64,000 nt of DNA from Escherichia coli (GTDB lineage Bacteria > Pseudomonadota > Gammaproteobacteria > Enterobacterales > Enterobacteriaceae). Each line of letters begins with the position of its first letter. Positions within the stretch are counted from its first letter, which is position 1. Below the pieces are notes generated by a model. It was not told the origin of the DNA. It ran no database searches and saw only the letters and a list, made by a program, of their open reading frames with translations. This document shows positions 20,019 to 36,719 of the stretch, one piece after another. The position numbers and the translations under genes are program-made. Where the stretch lies: NCBI RefSeq assembly GCF_003334355.1, contig NZ_QOWP01000001.1; one strand, written 5' to 3'.

Positions 20019-22277
20019 TTACTCTTCGCTATCACCGCTGCTGGCACGGCGAGGAGAGTCGATCTCAACACGATCGATACGCTGCAAACCGCGCATCAAC
20101 GTACCGCGGCGTCCACGTTCGCCAGTGACTTTCTGTAGCTCTTCCGGACGCAGTTTAATTTTGCGTTTCCCAACATGAATGGTCAGCGTGCTTTGCGGCG
20201 GCAGAACGTACAGTTGCGCCAGACCATCTTCTCCACGTGCGGCTTCTGCCGATGGAATGTTGATAATCTTGTTGCCTTTGCCCTTCGACAGCTGCGGCAG
20301 ATCGCTTACCGGGAACATCAACATACGGCCTGCCTGAGTGATTGCCAGCAGCATATCGGAAGCATCTTCAATCACCACCGGCGGCATAACATGGGCATTT
20401 TCCGGTAAAGTGATCAAAGCCTTACCTGCACGGTTACGCGCCACCAGATCGTTAAAGGTGCAGACGAAACCGTAACCCGCATCGGAAGCCATCAGCAGTT
20501 TCTGATCGTCGCTTTCCATCAGCATATGGTCAACGGTCGCCCCAGGCGGCAACGTTAATTTGCCGGTGAGCGGCTCGCCCTGACCACGCGCCGACGGCAG
20601 CGTAATCGGGTCAATGGCATAGCTACGACCGGTGGAATCAACAAACACTACCGGTTGGTTGCTCTTACCTTTCACCGCCGCTTTGAAGCTATCACCCGCT
20701 TTATAATTCAGGCCCGGCGCGTCGATATCATGGCCTTTAGCGCTGCGTACCCAGCCCATCTGCGACAGCACAATGGTGACAGGTTCAGACGGCAGCATGT
20801 CGTGCTCGCTCATCGCTTTCGCTTCTTCGCGTTCCTGCAACGGCGAACGACGATCGTCACCGTAGGCTTGCGCGTCTGCCTGCAGTTCTTTCTTCAGCAG
20901 GTTATTCATTTTACGCTCGGAAGCCAAAATGCCCTGCAACTGGTCGCGCTCTTTTTCCAGTTCACTCTGCTCACCGCGAATCTTCATCTCTTCCAGTTTG
21001 GCAAGATGACGCAGTTTCAGTTCGAGGATCGCTTCCGCCTGGGTTTCCGTAAGGCCAAACCGCGACATCAGCGCCGGTTTCGGTTCATCTTCATTACGAA
21101 TGATCTCAATCACTTCGTCGATATTGAGAAACGCCACCAGCAAACCTTCGAGGATATGCAGGCGCTTGAGGACTTTCTCCAGACGATAGTTCAGTCGGCG
21201 GCGCACGGTATCGCGGCGGAACACCAGCCATTCGGAGAGGATTTCCAGCAGGTTTTTCACCGCCGGACGACCATCCAGACCGATCATATTAAGGTTAATA
21301 CGATAGCTCTTTTCCAGATCGGTGGTAGCGAAGAGGTGGTTCATCACCTGATCCATATCCACGCGGTTGGAACGCGGCACAATCACCAGGCGGGTCGGGT
21401 TCTCGTGGTCAGATTCATCGCGCAGATCGTCAACCATCGGCAGCTTTTTGTTGCGCATTTGCGCAGCAATTTGCTCCAGTACGCGCGCACCTGAAACCTG
21501 ATGCGGCAATGCGCTGATAACCACCGCGCCATCTTCTTTCTTCCACACCGCGCGCATACGCACTGAACCACGTCCGTTCTCGTAGATTTTACGGATCTCG
21601 GCGCGCGAAGTGATAATTTCCGCTTCAGTCGGATAATCCGGCCCCAGCACGATATCCAGCAGCTGATCGAGCGTGGTTTTCGGCTGGTCGATTAATGCGA
21701 TTGCCGCCTGAGCCACTTCACGCAGGTTATGCGGTGGAATATCGGTCGCCATGCCGACGGCAATACCGGTGGTGCCGTTAAGCAAAATGTTTGGCAGACG
21801 GGCAGGTAGCATTTTCGGCTCCTGCAAAGTGCCGTCGAAGTTTGGCACCCAGTCAGCCGTCCCCTGCCCCAGCTCGCTCAATAGCAGCTCGGAATATTTC
21901 GACAACCGGGATTCGGTGTAACGCATTGCCGCGAACGATTTCGGATCGTCCGGCGCGCCCCAGTTCCCCTGACCATCAACCAGCGGATAACGGTAAGAGA
22001 ACGGTTGCGCCATCAGGACCATCGCTTCATAACAGGCGCTATCGCCGTGCGGATGGTATTTACCCAGTACGTCACCGACGGTACGGGCCGATTTTTTAAA
22101 TTTGGCGCTGGCATTCAGGCCCAGTTCAGACATCGCATACACAATGCGGCGCTGAACAGGTTTCAGACCATCACCAATAAACGGCAACGCACGGTCCATG
22201 ATCACGTACATGGAGTAGTTTAAGTAGGCGTTTTCCGTAAATTCATGTAGCGCAAGGCGCTCTGCCATATCGCTCAT
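20019..22277 (-). CDS. parC: DNA topoisomerase IV subunit A ParC
   Basis: 752-aa [47 protein letters not shown]...; type IIA topoisomerase A-subunit hallmarks. Confidence 0.97.
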
Positions 22278-28833: not shown

Positions 28834-29415
28834 ATGAGCAACACCCTGATTATCAACGGCGCGAAAAAATTCGCCCACTCCAATGGTCAACTGAACGACA
28901 CCCTGACCGAAGTCGCGGATGGCACACTGCGCGACCTCGGGCATGATGTTCGCATCGTTCGCGCCGACAGCGACTACGATGTCAAAGCGGAAGTACAAAA
29001 CTTTCTCTGGGCTGATGTGGTGATCTGGCAGATGCCAGGCTGGTGGATGGGCGCGCCGTGGACAGTGAAAAAATACATTGATGATGTATTCACCGAAGGT
29101 CACGGGACGCTGTATGCCAGCGATGGTCGTACCCGCAAAGATCCGTCGAAAAAATACGGTTCCGGCGGCCTGGTACAGGGCAAAAAATATATGCTTTCTC
29201 TGACCTGGAACGCACCAATGGAAGCCTTCACCGAAAAAGATCAGTTCTTCCACGGCGTTGGCGTTGACGGTGTGTATCTGCCGTTCCATAAAGCAAACCA
29301 ATTCCTCGGTATGGAACCGCTGCCGACATTTATCGCTAATGACGTGATAAAAATGCCTGATGTTCCCCGCTATACTGAAGAATATCGCAAGCATCTTGTG
29401 GAAATTTTTGGTTAA
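28834..29415 (+). CDS. mdaB: NADPH:quinone oxidoreductase MdaB
   Basis: 193-aa ORF MSNTLIINGAKKFAHSNGQLNDTLTEVADGTL...; matches remembered MdaB. Confidence 0.95.
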   Translation: MSNTLIINGAKKFAHSNGQLNDTLTEVADGTLRDLGHDVRIVRADSDYDVKAEVQNFLWADVVIWQMPGWWMGAPWTVKKYIDDVFTEGHGTLYASDGRTRKDPSKKYGSGGLVQGKKYMLSLTWNAPMEAFTEKDQFFHGVGVDGVYLPFHKANQFLGMEPLPTFIANDVIKMPDVPRYTEEYRKHLVEIFG

Positions 29416-29445
29416 CTAGAGCTCAGGCTTTAGAAGGAGTTAACC

Positions 29446-29760
29446 ATGCTTACCGTAATCGCAGAAATCCGTACTCGTCCTGGTCAACATCACCGTCAGG
29501 CGGTATTGGATCAGTTTGCTAAAATCGTTCCAACCGTACTGAAAGAAGAAGGTTGCCACGGCTATGCGCCAATGGTGGATTGCGCTGCTGGCGTGAGTTT
29601 CCAGTCTATGGCACCGGATTCTATCGTGATGATTGAGCAGTGGGAAAGCATCGCGCACCTTGAAGCGCATCTGCAAACCCCGCACATGAAGGCGTATAGC
29701 GAAGCCGTAAAAGGCGACGTGCTGGAGATGAATATCCGTATTCTGCAGCCAGGGATTTAA
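29446..29760 (+). CDS. ygiN: Quinol monooxygenase YgiN (ABM domain)
   Basis: 104-aa ORF MLTVIAEIRTRPGQHHRQAVLDQFAKIVPTVLKEEGCHGY...; AGGAG Shine-Dalgarno upstream. Confidence 0.9.
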   Translation: MLTVIAEIRTRPGQHHRQAVLDQFAKIVPTVLKEEGCHGYAPMVDCAAGVSFQSMAPDSIVMIEQWESIAHLEAHLQTPHMKAYSEAVKGDVLEMNIRILQPGI

Positions 29761-29807
29761 TCCTGCCTTGTTTGCCCGGCCATCCTGACCGGGCAATGTT
29801 CTTTCCT

Positions 29808-31703
<1,896 letters not shown>

Positions 31704-31728
31704 TTAAGTTAGCAATTCGAGTTGATCG

Positions 31729-32310
31729 TCAGAGATGGTGCAGACCAAGAAAATCGACGATCGGGTTGAAATAATCTTCGAAGCCCGTGAATGCGTGGTT
31801 GCCGCCTTCTATGACAGTCTGGCGGCAGGAAGCGTAGTACGCCACCGCCTGGCGGTAATCCAGCACTTCATCTCCCGTCTGTTGCAGCAGCCAGATCAAA
31901 TCCGGCGCTTCCAGCGGGTCAATCTGCATGACTTTGAGATCGTAAATATGGCGTGACTCTAGCACATATTGCTGCCCGGTGTAGGGGTTCTCGTTCTGAC
32001 CGAGATAGTCCGTCAGCAGTTCAAACGGGCGCACCGCCGGGTTTACCACCACTGCGGGCAGCATAAAACATTGTGACAACCAGGTGGCGTAATATCCCCC
32101 CAGTGACGAACCGACAATACCCAGCGAATCGCCGCCATGTTCCAGGACAATGGATTCCAGCAGCTCTGCCGCGTCGGAAGGATACGGCGGCAACTGCGGA
32201 ATGATCATCTCAACGTCAGGGTGATGTTCCGCCAGCCAGTTTTTTAACAAGCTCGCTTTTGCAGAGCGCGGCGAGCTGTTGAAACCGTGTAAATAAAGAA
32301 GCGTAGACAT
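31729..32310 (-). CDS. yqiA: Esterase YqiA (alpha/beta hydrolase)
   Basis: 193-aa [22 protein letters not shown]...; GxSxG serine motif (GSSLGG); start overlaps the cpdA stop by 1 nt. Confidence 0.9.
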
Positions 32311-33137
32311 CAGTAGCCTTCTGAAGCGGTATCAGGTTGGAAACGTGTGTCCGCCAGGCGATGCACCTCGGTGGTCAGCGTGCCATCAGCATGTAACTCG
32401 AGAGTACGCCAGCCGGGCGCGATGGTGTCCAGCGTAAAGTTGGAACAGTGCGGCTTAAACTGCACACAGGTCGACGGCGTTGCCAGCAGGCGGCGACCGT
32501 TCCAGTCGAGATCCAGCTCCTGATGAATATGACCGCACAGCAAGTATTTGACGTGCGGAAACTTCGCCAGCACGGTATCCAGTTCGCCCGCGTTACGCAG
32601 ACTGTGTTGATCGAGCCAACTACAACCCGCAGGTAGCGGATGATGATGCAGCAGCAGCAACGTATGGCGTTCTGGCGCATCGGCCAGTTTACGTTCCAGC
32701 CACTCAAGCTGAAACTCGCTCAGCTCACCGTGCGGCACGCCAAACACCTGGCTATCCAGCAACAGGATTTGCCATTGCTCACCAATAAACACGCGCTTCG
32801 CCGGGGAGATACCCGCATCCTGTAACGCGCTGTACATCGCGGGCTGGAAATCGTGGTTGCCAGGCAGCCAGACGCAGGGCGCACGAAAACTTGCGATGCC
32901 TTCAGCGAAATGCTGATAGGCCGCAGAGGATTGATCCTGCGCTAAATCACCTGTCGCGACAATCAGGTCGAATTCGTGCTGGTGTGGACGAATCGCCTCC
33001 AGCACCGCCTGGTAGCTTTCCCAGGTGTTTACCCCTAACAGGGCTTCGTGCTTTTGTGCAAACAGGTGAGTATCGGTAATTTGTAAAATCCTGACTCTGG
33101 CCTCACCAGCCAGAGGAAGGGTTAACAGGCTTTCCAA
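32310..33137 (-). CDS. cpdA: 3',5'-cyclic-AMP phosphodiesterase CpdA (calcineurin-like metallophosphoesterase)
   Basis: 275-aa ORF; metallophosphoesterase motifs DTH, GDL, GNHD, GHIH visible. Confidence 0.93.
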
Positions 33138-33161
33138 ATGGTGTCCTTAGGTTTCACGACG

Positions 33162-33584
33162 CTAGTAAACCGGAATCGCCATCGCTCCATGTGCTAAACA
33201 GTATCGCAACCAGTCCGCTAAAAACTGGTTAATTTGATGCTTTTCGTCGCGTTGATGCAACTTTTTATTAGGATAATCATACCGCGCTTTGAAGCGAAAA
33301 ATCTGCTGGCTTGAACACACTTCAGCCACCATCGCGTCATGATACAGACGCACCGTCATTGACGGAAGGCTCCAGTAACTGATCGCGGGCGCAGTCTGTT
33401 CTATTGTCACCAGGGTAGTGTATCGGGTCGATTCCACAATCGTCAGCCGATATTGTGCGTTTGCCACCTGATAGCTTACAGTTTCGCCGGGTGCGTCATT
33501 GCGCGGTAACAAACGGCGCAATTGTGAAAAGTTCATCTCGCACAGGCGCATCATTTCAGGAAAGTCAGGTGTGTAACGCTTCAT
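33162..33584 (-). CDS. yqiB: DUF1249 family protein YqiB
   Basis: 140-aa [30 protein letters not shown]...; abuts the nudF stop. Confidence 0.85.
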
Positions 33585-34214
33585 TTATGCCCACTCATTT
33601 TTTAACGCTTGATGATGCAGCTGCAGCCATTGCAAAGCGATGACCGACGCTGCGTTGTCGATTTTCCCCTCTTCTACCCACTGGTATGCCTGTTCCCGGC
33701 TTACCACATGAACGCGAATATCTTCGTTTTCATCAGCCAGACCATGAATACCGCTTGCGGTCGTGGCGTCCACTTCGCCCACCATAATTGACGAACGCTC
33801 ACTGGTGCCTCCCGGGCTTGCCAGGAAACTTAACACCGGTTTGGTCCGTTTGACTATCAGTCCCGCCTCTTCAATCGCTTCGCGACGGGCAACATCTTCC
33901 ACACTTTCACCCTCTTCAATCATCCCGGCAACCATCTCCAGTAGCCAGGGGGTTTCACTGGTGTCGTATGCGGCAATCCGAATCTGCTCAATCAGCACAA
34001 CTTCATCACGCACTGGGTCAAAGGGTAGCAAGACTGCGGCGTGACCGCGCTCAAAAATTTCCCGCCGTACCTCATGACTCATTTGCCCGTTGAATAAACG
34101 ATGACGAAATCTATAAAGATCTAATGAAAAAAAGCCGCGATAAAGTGTTTCTCGTGCAATAATTTCTACATCGTTTTTGCCAAATGTAACGGGCAGGCTG
34201 TCTGGCTTAAGCAT
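33585..34214 (-). CDS. nudF: ADP-ribose pyrophosphatase NudF (Nudix)
   Basis: 209-aa ORF; Nudix-box region (...[19 protein letters not shown]...). Confidence 0.93.
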
Positions 34215-34315
34215 TGTTAATGTCCTGGCACTAATAGTGAATTAAATGTGAATTTCAGCGACGTTTGACTGCCGTTTGAGCAGTCATGTGTTAAATTGAG
34301 GCACATTAACGCCCT

Positions 34316-34336
34316 ATGGCACGTAACGCCAACCTT
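34316..34336 (+). promoter_or_regulatory. Candidate MarA/SoxS/Rob box upstream of tolC
   Basis: ATGGCACGTAACGCCAACCTT fits the marbox pattern AYnGCACnnWnnRYYAAAY reasonably; tolC is a known mar/sox/rob regulon member (established knowledge). Confidence 0.45.
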
Positions 34337-34418
34337 TTGCGGTAGCGGCTTCTGCTAGAATCCGCAATAATTTTACAGTTTGATCGCGCTAAATACTGCT
34401 TCACCACAAGGAATGCAA

Positions 34419-35900
34419 ATGAAGAAATTGCTCCCCATTCTTATCGGCCTGAGCCTTTCTGGGTTCAGTTCGTTGAGCCAGGCCGAGAACCTGATGCAAG
34501 TTTATCAGCAAGCACGCCTTAGTAACCCGGAATTGCGTAAGTCTGCCGCCGATCGTGATGCTGCCTTTGAAAAAATTAATGAAGCGCGCAGTCCATTACT
34601 GCCACAGCTAGGTTTAGGTGCAGATTACACCTATAGCAACGGCTACCGCGACGCGAACGGCATCAACTCTAACGCGACCAGTGCGTCCTTGCAGTTAACT
34701 CAATCCATTTTTGATATGTCGAAATGGCGTGCGTTAACGCTGCAGGAAAAAGCAGCAGGGATTCAGGACGTCACGTATCAGACCGATCAGCAAACCTTGA
34801 TCCTCAACACCGCGACCGCTTATTTCAACGTGTTGAATGCTATTGACGTTCTTTCCTATACACAGGCACAAAAAGAAGCGATCTACCGTCAATTAGATCA
34901 AACCACCCAACGTTTTAACGTGGGCCTGGTAGCGATCACCGACGTGCAGAACGCCCGCGCACAGTACGATACCGTGCTGGCGAACGAAGTGACCGCACGT
35001 AATAACCTTGATAACGCGGTAGAGCAGCTGCGCCAGATCACCGGTAACTACTATCCGGAACTGGCTGCGCTGAATGTCGAAAACTTTAAAACCGACAAAC
35101 CACAGCCGGTTAACGCGCTGCTGAAAGAAGCCGAAAAACGCAACCTGTCGCTGTTACAGGCACGCTTGAGCCAGGACCTGGCGCGCGAGCAAATTCGCCA
35201 GGCGCAGGATGGTCACTTACCGACTCTGGATTTAACGGCTTCTACCGGGATTTCTGACACCTCTTATAGCGGTTCGAAAACCCGTGGTGCCGCTGGTACC
35301 CAGTATGACGATAGCAATATGGGCCAGAACAAAGTTGGCCTGAGCTTCTCGCTGCCGATTTATCAGGGCGGAATGGTTAACTCGCAGGTGAAACAGGCAC
35401 AGTACAACTTTGTCGGTGCCAGCGAGCAACTGGAAAGTGCCCATCGTAGCGTCGTGCAGACCGTGCGTTCCTCCTTCAACAACATTAATGCATCTATCAG
35501 TAGCATTAACGCCTACAAACAAGCCGTAGTTTCCGCTCAAAGCTCATTAGACGCGATGGAAGCGGGCTACTCGGTCGGTACGCGTACCATTGTTGATGTG
35601 TTGGATGCGACCACCACGTTGTACAACGCCAAGCAAGAGCTGGCGAATGCGCGTTATAACTACCTGATTAATCAGCTGAATATTAAGTCAGCCCTGGGTA
35701 CGTTGAACGAGCAGGATCTGCTGGCACTGAACAATGCGCTGAGCAAACCGGTTTCCACTAATCCGGAAAACGTTGCCCCGCAAACGCCGGAACAGAATGC
35801 TATTGCTGATGGTTATGCGCCTGATAGCCCGGCCCCCGTCGTTCAGCAAACATCCGCACGCACTACCACCAGTAACGGTCATAACCCTTTCCGTAACTGA
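34419..35900 (+). CDS. tolC: Outer membrane efflux channel TolC
   Basis: ORF trimmed to the ATG giving 493 aa (MKKLLPILIGLSLSGFSSLSQA signal, then ENLMQVYQQARLSNPELRKS...). Confidence 0.97.
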   Translation: MKKLLPILIGLSLSGFSSLSQAENLMQVYQQARLSNPELRKSAADRDAAFEKINEARSPLLPQLGLGADYTYSNGYRDANGINSNATSASLQLTQSIFDMSKWRALTLQEKAAGIQDVTYQTDQQTLILNTATAYFNVLNAIDVLSYTQAQKEAIYRQLDQTTQRFNVGLVAITDVQNARAQYDTVLANEVTARNNLDNAVEQLRQITGNYYPELAALNVENFKTDKPQPVNALLKEAEKRNLSLLQARLSQDLAREQIRQAQDGHLPTLDLTASTGISDTSYSGSKTRGAAGTQYDDSNMGQNKVGLSFSLPIYQGGMVNSQVKQAQYNFVGASEQLESAHRSVVQTVRSSFNNINASISSINAYKQAVVSAQSSLDAMEAGYSVGTRTIVDVLDATTTLYNAKQELANARYNYLINQLNIKSALGTLNEQDLLALNNALSKPVSTNPENVAPQTPEQNAIADGYAPDSPAPVVQQTSARTTTSNGHNPFRN

Positions 35901-35907
35901 TGACGAC

Positions 35908-35927
35908 GACGGGGCTTCGGCCCCGTC
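35908..35927 (+). terminator. GC-rich hairpin after tolC
   Basis: GACGGGGC-TTCG-GCCCCGTC directly after the tolC stop; no strong T-tract follows, so it may be a stabiliser or weak terminator. Confidence 0.45.
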
Positions 35928-36047
35928 TGAACGTAAGGCAACGTAAAGATACGGGTTATCTGCCGCATTCTTCCCCCTTCTCGCTTCAATTTCGACCAGC
36001 CATCCTCTATTCTGATGGGTATTTACCACTGGTCCCGGAAGACAAAA

Positions 36048-36719
36048 ATGAAACGGACAAAATCCATACGCCACGCATCGTTCCGCAAAAACTGGAGCGC
36101 ACGCCATCTGACACCAGTCGCTCTCGCGGTTGCCACTGTTTTTATGCTGGCTGGCTGTGAAAAGAGTGATGAAACAGTGTCTCTCTATCAAAATGCTGAC
36201 GACTGTTCAGCTGCAAACCCAGGCAAAAGCGCCGAATGTACCACCGCGTACAACAATGCGCTGAAAGAAGCCGAACGTACTGCGCCGAAATACGCCACCC
36301 GTGAAGACTGTGTTGCTGAATTTGGTGAAGGTCAGTGCCAGCAGGCACCAGCCCAGGCTGGCATGGCACCAGAAAACCAGGCGCAGGCCCAGCAATCCAG
36401 CGGGAGTTTCTGGATGCCGCTGATGGCCGGTTACATGATGGGGCGTCTGATGGGCGGCGGCGCGGGATTTGCACAGCAGCCGCTGTTCTCCTCGAAAAAC
36501 CCAGCCAGTCCGGCTTACGGTAAATATACCGACGCGACGGGTAAAAACTATGGCGCAGCCCAGCCAGGCCGCACCATGACCGTACCGAAGACGGCAATGG
36601 CACCAAAACCGGCGACCACCACTACCGTTACCCGTGGCGGTTTTGGTGAATCTGTTGCCAAACAAAGCACTATGCAGCGTAGTGCAACCGGTACCTCTTC
36701 TCGTTCAATGGGTGGCTGA
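36048..36719 (+). CDS. ygiB: DUF1190 family lipoprotein YgiB
   Basis: ORF trimmed to 223 aa ([37 protein letters not shown]..., lipobox LAGC); low-complexity Gln/Ala/Gly/Met-rich middle. Confidence 0.85.

Follow-up and report, generated by a model that had tools for sequence, protein, structure and literature searches.

The nudF-yqiB-cpdA-yqiA-parE string of Escherichia coli: a catalogued gene run, its conserved junctions, and its probable expression as a complex operon

Near the middle of a 64,000-nucleotide stretch of Escherichia coli DNA (the window), four minus-strand genes—nudF, yqiB, cpdA, and yqiA—lead into parE, while tolC is transcribed divergently from the other end of the run (Table 1). 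All five proteins exceed their curated NCBIfam equivalog cut-offs, with full-length scores against cut-offs, in bits, of 440/248 for nudF, 285/195 for yqiB, 518/225 for cpdA, 379/252 for yqiA, and 1250/723 for parE. RefSeq annotates the five genes at the same coordinates as the open reading frame calls, and the preliminary description of this DNA had both their positions and their minus-strand arrangement upstream of parE exactly right. This sequence matches E. coli chromosomes at 100% identity, and all 5426 of the 5426 complete genomes contain it. The feature is the catalogued E. coli nudF-yqiB-cpdA-yqiA-parE gene string—real, ordinary, and known before—and it offers little novelty: the operon had been recorded already, and bacterial operons commonly have overlapping stops and starts.

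Table 1. Genes, junctions, and candidate control elements of the string, listed from the tolC side (positions are those of the window)
Feature	Position	Strand	Remarks
tolC, divergent neighbour of the string	34419..35900	+	Arrangement kept along with the string
tolC-nudF divergent control region	34215..34418	.	tolC marbox and -10 blocks (alignment)
Alternative candidate nudF promoter, GTCAAA-17-TTTAAT	34241-34269		Weak match
Candidate nudF promoter, sigma-32-like, GCTGAAA-N13-CACTATTA	34232-34259		Motif score 9/14 in E. coli
nudF, ADP-ribose diphosphatase, 209 aa, first in string	33585..34214	-	ORF; NCBIfam NF008003 equivalog; RefSeq
nudF stop/yqiB start, TAAATG, gap 0	33582..33587	-	Junction reading
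yqiB, DUF1249 protein, 140 aa	33162..33584	-	NF008267
TTGCAT-17-TCAAAT in yqiB, fits reported start 88 nt upstream of cpdA	33232..33260	-	Weak; single 454 read
yqiB-cpdA spacer, 24 nt, with AAGGA Shine-Dalgarno (33144-33148) 6 nt before TTG	33138..33161	-	Sequence
cpdA, 3',5'-cAMP phosphodiesterase, 275 aa	32310..33137	-	NF008359
cpdA stop/yqiA start overlap, TGATG, -1	32308..32312	-	Junction reading
yqiA, esterase YqiA (UPF0227), 193 aa	31729..32310	-	NF008291
Block CAATATGTG(C/T)TAGAGTC in yqiA, codons 114-119	31955..31971	-	Candidate internal promoter
yqiA-parE spacer, 28 nt, A/U-rich	31701..31728	-	No hairpin, no parE Shine-Dalgarno
parE, topoisomerase IV subunit B, 630 aa, distal gene	29808..31700	-	TIGR01055
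G+C-rich hairpin between convergent parE and ygiN	29774..29794	.	Sequence

From nudF to parE, the gaps between successive minus-strand genes are 0, 24, -1, and 28 nt. As first described, the nudF stop abuts the yqiB start (TAA ATG), the cpdA stop overlaps the yqiA start by 1 nt, and the string stands directly upstream of parE; the characterization of its junctions as zero or overlapping holds for these two pairs but not for yqiB>cpdA, where 24 nt carry a separate Shine-Dalgarno sequence. The 3' end of nudF holds GAGTGG, a Shine-Dalgarno-like sequence for yqiB whose GAG, although the site is synonymous, is retained by at least 95% of Enterobacterales. We compared these features across 80 genomes (Enterobacterales, Vibrionaceae, and Aeromonas) and 8 distant metagenomic loci; word-index protein searches gave close relatives only, and distant context came from a representative search and contig look-ups. 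The nudF>yqiB gap is at most 4 nt in 95% of 60 Enterobacterales and the cpdA>yqiA gap lies between -4 and +3 in 60 of 60, while in Vibrionaceae the latter is at most 4 nt in 77% and the former is larger, with a median of 26 nt. Both tight pairs are found even where the DUF1249 protein is just 35-45% identical to YqiB, and the same tight geometry is seen in L003, L089, and L090. Both junctions are conserved well past chance, with their geometry under selection.

Stop/start overlaps of -1 and -4 are reportedly the commonest gene spacings within E. coli operons, so the junction pattern is not unusual by itself. When the junction windows were folded as RNA, none was more structured than its shuffles (z from +0.4 to +1.6), and nothing therefore forces dependence on an upstream ribosome. 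Masked start sites as a ground for obligatory coupling were ruled out by this comparison; with open start regions, yqiB and yqiA may be able to dispense with coupling to the gene upstream. The label of a translationally coupled string was accordingly too strong: coupling geometry is present at nudF/yqiB and cpdA/yqiA only and not at yqiB/cpdA (24 nt) or yqiA/parE (28 nt), cpdA has its own Shine-Dalgarno sequence and a weak TTG start, and at no junction does the RNA show more structure than its shuffles.

The two looser junctions have distinctive features of their own. Between yqiB and cpdA, the spacer sequence AAGGACACCATTTG is nearly invariant across Enterobacterales, and no other valley of synonymous constraint in the five genes is as strong as the one here. 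Ahead of the catalytic D-x-H motif of cpdA, the TTG (33135-33137) is the sole start codon in frame, and a non-ATG start (TTG or GTG) is likewise forced in 72 of 75 related loci, Aeromonas cpdA starting on GTG; this non-ATG start is retained across Enterobacterales and Vibrionaceae. At the distal end, E. coli parE lacks a Shine-Dalgarno sequence, its anti-Shine-Dalgarno duplex being valued at +0.1 kcal/mol, and the medians in relatives are +0.1 (60 Enterobacterales) and +0.2 (14 Vibrionaceae); Aeromonas parE has only a weak Shine-Dalgarno match. The Shine-Dalgarno-less parE, too, is retained across Enterobacterales and Vibrionaceae. Folding against shuffled sequence showed the yqiA-parE spacer to be unstructured.

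A simple scan of the minus strand from 31700 to 34214 for Rho-independent sites found nothing terminator-like, and Rfam, searched over 29000-36500 with a limit of E<=1, gave no element. The hairpin between parE and ygiN is probably the end of the transcription unit; we can only infer that it terminates parE, because its T-run lies on the ygiN side only. A simple sigma-70 scan detected no promoter within the string and no strong consensus upstream of nudF. The literature fills in part of this picture: Shimada 2014 (PMC3946193) lists an operon ‘(nudF- -yqiA-parE)’ and places a constitutive RpoD promoter inside it, between cpdA and yqiA; the supplement of Mendoza-Vargas 2009 (PMC2760140) counts cpdA as the third gene and yqiA as the fourth gene of the operon and gives starts at cpdA -88 and yqiA -143, each of them a single 454 read. 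The string's genes are not mentioned in the SMRT-Cappable-seq and Kim 2012 supplements. Operon status draws on database-derived statements in the two papers and on the logic of the sequence; co-transcription of the string with parE is plausible because the genes share one strand, no terminator-like site intervenes, the 28-nt spacer is free of hairpins, and both papers list the operon.

Within yqiA, about 250 nt before the parE ATG, a short block includes TGcTAGAGT, which resembles an extended -10 element. All 60 of the 60 Enterobacterales carry the block unchanged, although its synonymous sites are free to vary and it includes a rare Leu codon, and among 1345 windows it stands third for synonymous constraint (-3.7 sd). 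The block is absent in loci with a long yqiA-parE spacer; its promoter-like motif occurs 89 times in the window. Judged by this motif, the block may be parE's own promoter. Short synonymous-site-invariant blocks resembling embedded promoters occur once in nudF and once in yqiA. In two Vibrionaceae, simple sigma-70 and terminator scans of the long yqiA-parE spacers found no promoter or terminator.

These observations bear directly on whether the string behaves as a strict single operon, in which one promoter upstream of nudF and coupling at every junction would yield the four enzymes and ParE in fixed proportion. The single strand, short gaps, lack of terminator-like sites, and conserved gene order would all suit such an arrangement, but we regard it as very unlikely: two of the four junctions span 24 and 28 nt, cpdA has a weak TTG behind its own Shine-Dalgarno sequence, parE has no Shine-Dalgarno sequence at all, internal promoters have been reported in the literature, yqiA carries a conserved promoter-like block, and the start regions are not sequestered by structure. 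The co-expression with topoisomerase IV proposed at the outset is similarly upheld in part. It agrees with the shared strand, the uninterrupted run, and the operon given in two papers, but its strict form is at odds with the reported internal promoters, the yqiA block, and a yqiA-parE link that widens or breaks elsewhere. Co-expression would be graded rather than equal, because the cpdA TTG/GTG is forced, parE lacks a Shine-Dalgarno sequence, and yqiA may hold a promoter block.

Gene order had been proposed as a check, and the order tolC<>nudF-DUF1249-cpdA-yqiA-parE(-parC), where <> marks divergent transcription, recurs in the 80 genomes and in the distant loci, with the tight junctions persisting. 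DUF1249 is followed by a Metallophos (cpdA) gene in 7 of the 7 distant loci that could be scored and in 79 of 80 genome loci, the sole exception, L077, having no scored cpdA match. A divergent OEP gene is found in six of eight distant loci (L002, L084, L085, L088, L089, and L090), and parC directly follows parE in Vibrionaceae, Aeromonas, Budvicia, and L089. The interval between yqiA and parE is more variable: Enterobacterales have 26-116 nt, Vibrionaceae about 160 nt, and Aeromonas 1.2-4.5 kb, which efflux genes fill. parE still comes after the string in six of seven distant loci and is missing from the Endozoicomonas locus. In L085, the cluster has a crp-like gene and a cyclase gene as neighbours. 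Taken with the divergent tolC and downstream parC, the cluster is far older than most operons and has also been far more stable.

One alternative reading is that the proximal genes form a module for clearing adenine-nucleotide signals, with parE and parC attached by ancient synteny alone and without functional meaning. TolC would export cAMP, CpdA hydrolyse cAMP, and NudF hydrolyse ADP-ribose, with DUF1249 and YqiA as accessories. The near-universal succession of DUF1249 and cpdA (7/7 distant and 79/80 genome loci), the tolC-like OEP gene diverging in almost all loci, and the crp-like and cyclase genes beside the cluster in L085 all favor this idea, as do the removal of parE to 1.2-4.5 kb behind efflux genes in Aeromonas, its absence from the Endozoicomonas locus, and the TolC-dependent cAMP export mentioned in PMC3726613. 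Yet parE follows the string in six of seven distant loci, so that the linkage may be under some selection or may be decaying very slowly.

The proposed partnership of YqiB with CpdA was approached with AlphaFold on a (G4S)6-linked fusion and a 28-row genome-paired alignment. YqiB by itself is modelled by AF2 with a pLDDT of 86.7 and a pTM of 0.80, whereas the fusion reached a pTM of 0.62, about the value for undocked YqiB, with no gain in YqiB confidence; a complex is unsupported, although the test is crude because it came without PAE or contact output. This result, too, counts against the clearance module, which we consider tentative and somewhat unlikely. A profile search of YqiB against PDB sequences gave no relative, and no fold family was assigned, the best Foldseek hit against the PDB having an E of 0.02 and a TM of 0.37, which is no convincing match. 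Our literature search found nothing on DUF1249, on yqiB-cpdA, or on the full nudF-yqiB-cpdA-yqiA-parE string; papers on ‘yqiB’ mostly concern an unrelated B. subtilis gene.

A different rationale for the linkage would be stress, with sigma-32 raising nucleotide-clearing enzymes and topoisomerase IV together as a heat-shock operon. We scored the region upstream of the first gene against the sigma-32 consensus (CTTGAAA, 13-15 nt, CCCCATnT; maximum 14). In Enterobacter, Citrobacter, and related genera, CTTGAAA-N13-CACCATTG lies 45 nt upstream of nudF, and scores of 11-12/14 were reached in 15 of 81 loci, all Enterobacteriaceae other than E. coli, against 1% of background windows; because the high scorers are close relatives, these locus counts are not independent. 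Cedecea and Mixta carry a near-canonical -10, CCCATTT or CCCCCACT, and in P. aeruginosa PA4971-PA4969 are induced by RpoH. On the other hand, the E. coli version is degenerate, a search of the literature turned up no study that assigns E. coli nudF to the sigma-32 regulon, and parE is not among the listed RpoH-induced P. aeruginosa genes. On balance, a heat-shock operon is an unlikely description of the E. coli string.

The reading we favor, to which we give a probability of roughly three in four, is a complex nudF-yqiB-cpdA-yqiA-parE operon with unequal but correlated expression, descended from an ancient gammaproteobacterial cluster, tolC<>nudF-DUF1249-cpdA-yqiA-parE-parC. Transcripts would originate between tolC and nudF and continue across all five genes, since nothing terminator-like precedes the hairpin past parE, and weaker internal promoters in yqiB, cpdA, and yqiA would supplement the distal-gene transcripts. 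Translation is set separately for each gene. Because yqiB and yqiA start at the nudF and cpdA stops, with Shine-Dalgarno-like sequences embedded in the gene upstream, termination-reinitiation would be allowed within each pair; cpdA initiates independently from its own Shine-Dalgarno sequence and obligatory weak TTG, which might keep the phosphodiesterase low, and parE initiates without a Shine-Dalgarno sequence from an unstructured A/U-rich leader. The outcome would be expression that is correlated but unequal, as opposed to that of a strictly coupled string.

A stronger version, in which tolC<>nudF-DUF1249-cpdA-yqiA-parE-parC is an ancient selected super-operon, DUF1249 is an obligate partner of the cAMP phosphodiesterase, and deliberately tiered expression ties cAMP and ADP-ribose removal to decatenation, strikes us as improbable. 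If it were true, the tiers would be the forced cpdA TTG, the Shine-Dalgarno-less parE, and the embedded promoters, with heat-shock control possible. The preliminary remark that the logic of this linkage is not obvious stands. As a finding the string is of small importance, with modest value in the details of its conservation, starts, and blocks; these could guide studies of cAMP homeostasis, of how the quinolone target topoisomerase IV is expressed, and of what DUF1249 and YqiA do.

Compared with known systems, the locus is the same as the nudF-yqiB-cpdA-yqiA-parE unit of E. coli K-12 (PMC3946193, PMC2760140), with no difference; relative to those reports, junction geometry, start codons, Shine-Dalgarno features, and conservation are detailed further here. 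In Serratia marcescens, Kalivoda et al. 2013 (PMC3726613) describe cpdS within a run of genes in the same direction with topoisomerase genes downstream, and the authors of both that study and one on Yersinia ruckeri yqiA (PMC5981175) wrote of a putative operon and suspected polar effects. The gaps in Serratia loci are -4 to 0, 27, -1, and 77-89 nt, the spacer to parE thus being longer than the 28 nt of E. coli. In P. aeruginosa, PA4971 (aspP/nudF), PA4970 (DUF1249), and PA4969 (cpdA) are adjacent and co-induced 7-12 fold by RpoH. We take PA4968 to be yqiA-like and PA4967 to be parE. RpoH control has been shown in that organism, whereas E. coli has only a degenerate sigma-32-like element. Vibrio vulnificus is reported to have a mutT-yqiB-cpdA-yqiA operon, with a polycistronic message and an internal cpdA promoter activated by cAMP-CRP; its four families and their order match those of E. 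coli. Vibrionaceae loci differ from that of E. coli in their wider nudF-yqiB gap (median 26 nt) and in a parE that lies about 160 nt away.

The string belongs to the nudF-yqiB-cpdA-yqiA-parE complex operon, which has been catalogued before. The open reading frame listing, the sequence itself, RefSeq annotation and NCBIfam equivalog models agree for all five minus-strand genes; the feature is real and was placed correctly from the outset. The window is E. coli chromosomal DNA: positions 31600-34420 are 100% identical to many complete E. coli genomes, and the region is present in 5426 of 5426.

Coordinates of the string, its neighbors and associated elements in the window, with E. coli junction gaps measured directly
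Feature	Position	Strand	Detail
tolC	34419-35900		divergent from nudF
sigma-32-like element	34232-34259		upstream of nudF
nudF	33585-34214	minus	ORF, RefSeq, NCBIfam equivalog
nudF codons 15-21	34153-34172		GATGTAGAAATTATTGCACG
TGcAATAAT	34155-34163	plus	extended -10-like
yqiB (DUF1249)	33162-33584	minus	ORF, RefSeq, NCBIfam equivalog
cpdA start region	33135-33149		AAGGACACCATTTGGA
cpdA	32310-33137	minus	ORF, RefSeq, NCBIfam equivalog
yqiA	31729-32310	minus	ORF, RefSeq, NCBIfam equivalog
yqiA block	31955-31971	minus	CAATATGTG(C/T)TAGAGTC
parE upstream region	31701-31728		no Shine-Dalgarno
parE	29808-31700	minus	ORF, RefSeq, NCBIfam equivalog
hairpin	29774-29794		G+C-rich, between convergent parE and ygiN
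parE-parC interval	22300-29800		genes include ygiW, qseBC, ygiZ, mdaB, ygiN (RefSeq)
parC	20019-22277	minus	7.5 kb beyond parE
nudF>yqiB junction			gap 0 nt, TAA ATG
yqiB>cpdA junction			gap 24 nt, AAGGA Shine-Dalgarno 6 nt ahead of start
cpdA>yqiA junction			gap -1 nt, TGATG
yqiA>parE junction			gap 28 nt

The preliminary description had the four genes packed with zero or overlapping junctions. This holds for two of the three internal junctions, including both specific instances it named (the nudF stop abutting the yqiB start and the 1-nt overlap of cpdA with yqiA), but not for yqiB>cpdA. Overlaps of -1 and -4 nt are the modal gene spacings within E. coli operons, so the geometry of the tight junctions is ordinary. 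Reinitiation is possible at nudF>yqiB and cpdA>yqiA, though nothing enforces it there; in a folding comparison, none of the four downstream start regions was more structured than shuffled sequence. Thus, the geometry for translational coupling exists at two junctions, whereas uniform coupling of the string was overstated, given the 24- and 28-nt gaps.

Conservation of gene order had been proposed as a check, and a profile built from diverse DUF1249 proteins retrieved 80 genome loci (Enterobacterales, Vibrionaceae and Aeromonas; six genes modelled per locus) across which the order recurs. Among the 60 Enterobacterales, median gaps were -4 nt for nudF>yqiB (4 nt or less in 95%), 27 for yqiB>cpdA, -1 for cpdA>yqiA (3 nt or less in all) and 45 for yqiA>parE (range 26-116). 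In Vibrionaceae, cpdA>yqiA is tight in most loci and the yqiA>parE median reaches 161 nt, while the latter gap spans 1.2-4.5 kb in Aeromonas, where an AaeA-like adaptor gene and a gene for an AaeB-like efflux protein (aaeA/aaeB-like; L075 11900-16300, also in L076, L079 and L081) have been inserted and break the string's link to topoisomerase IV. The same pattern appeared in eight distant loci whose DUF1249 proteins are only 35-45% identical to YqiB: a Metallophos (cpdA) gene always comes next after DUF1249, parE follows the string in six of seven, and a TolC-family gene is divergent in six of eight. The NUDIX|DUF1249 and Metallophos|UPF0227 pairs again abut or overlap in three of them (L003, L089 and L090), with L089 retaining the complete order tolC<>nudF-DUF1249-cpdA-yqiA-parE-parC-plsC. 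The string is therefore one piece of a very ancient cluster; its two tight junctions are selected features, and its loosest link is the attachment to parE. Separately, a Cupin_7 (ChrR-like) gene replaces or precedes the NUDIX gene before DUF1249 in Endozoicomonas (L084 8324-8974) and on a metagenomic contig (L003 60-812), and cAMP-signalling genes adjoin the cpdA string in another distant locus (L085 13624-16642), with a Crp-family regulator and a CHASE2-adenylate/guanylate cyclase just past parE. parC directly follows parE in Vibrionaceae, Aeromonas, Budvicia and L089, so the genes between the two in E. coli were apparently inserted later, splitting an ancestral parE-parC pair.

Expression of the string is tiered rather than uniform. 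In E. coli, TTG is the sole possible cpdA start, with no alternative in-frame start upstream of the catalytic motif, and a non-ATG start is likewise forced by the lack of an in-frame ATG in 72 of 75 genome loci (TTG in Enterobacterales and Vibrionaceae, GTG in Aeromonas). The start region is almost invariant across Enterobacterales, and among 1345 synonymous-site windows in the five genes none is under stronger constraint than the cpdA initiation region. parE, compared at the same upstream position in 78 loci, lacks a Shine-Dalgarno sequence: its anti-SD duplex is +0.1 kcal/mol in E. coli (medians +0.1 in 60 Enterobacterales and +0.2 in 14 Vibrionaceae), versus -3 to -6 for nudF, yqiB, cpdA and yqiA. 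This lack extends throughout Enterobacterales and Vibrionaceae, at a yqiA spacer of 26 nt just as at one of 250 nt; its persistence at spacers of 100-250 nt indicates a trait independent of coupling to yqiA.

Two further blocks stood out in the synonymous-site scan. The yqiA block (-3.7 sd) does not differ among any of the 60 Enterobacterales although third positions are free and one leucine codon is rare, and is not conserved in long-spacer lineages. Within it, the extended -10-like TGcTAGAGT sits roughly 250 nt ahead of parE, and the block could act as a parE promoter lying within yqiA; with 89 copies of such a motif in the window, promoter function is an inference. The nudF block, nearly invariant across Enterobacterales and the second strongest window (-4.0 sd), carries on its reverse complement an extended -10-like motif facing tolC some 250 nt off; it could serve tolC as a promoter lying further upstream, or bind a regulator at a site overlapping nudF.

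The tolC-nudF spacer gives a good alignment across Enterobacteriaceae, in which the tolC marbox and -10 blocks are visible. Many genera (L005-L033) carry CTTGAAA-N13-CACCATTG 45 nt upstream of nudF, matching 11-12 of 14 sigma-32 promoter positions in 15 of 81 loci versus 1% of background windows, with near-canonical -10 elements in some; the E. coli version is degraded (9/14). Homologous genes in P. aeruginosa, PA4971-PA4969, show 7-12 fold RpoH induction. This hints at sigma-32 control of the first gene in the family, but only weakly in E. coli.

AMP is the product of both NudF and CpdA, from signalling or by-product nucleotides. Export of cAMP by TolC is also reported (mentioned in PMC3726613), and L085 has its crp-like and cyclase genes alongside. 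Together these fit a putative nucleotide-signal clearance module, with parE/parC attached through ancient synteny. YqiB is predicted confidently (pLDDT 86.7, pTM 0.80) as helix-five strands-helix, with no sequence relative in the PDB and no convincing fold match. A YqiB-CpdA fusion construct, with the alignment paired by genome, gave a pTM of 0.62, about the value for undocked YqiB, and so offers no support for a complex.

Scanning the minus strand from parE to the nudF start revealed no terminator-like site, Rfam recovered no element, and the yqiA-parE spacer holds no hairpin. The hairpin beyond parE has a T-run on the ygiN side only and, for parE, would thus be a hairpin without a U-tract. 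Shimada et al. 2014 (PMC3946193) list the operon as '(nudF- -yqiA-parE)' and place a constitutive RpoD promoter internally, between cpdA and yqiA; supplementary entries of Mendoza-Vargas et al. 2009 (PMC2760140) for cpdA ('gene 3') and yqiA ('gene 4') give single-read starts at -88 and -143 nt, respectively. Co-expression with topoisomerase IV, as initially proposed, is overstated in its strict form, but co-transcription of all five genes is likely from sequence logic and annotation. Papers on Serratia (PMC3726613) and Yersinia (PMC5981175) describe a suspected operon that is the same as the E. coli string.
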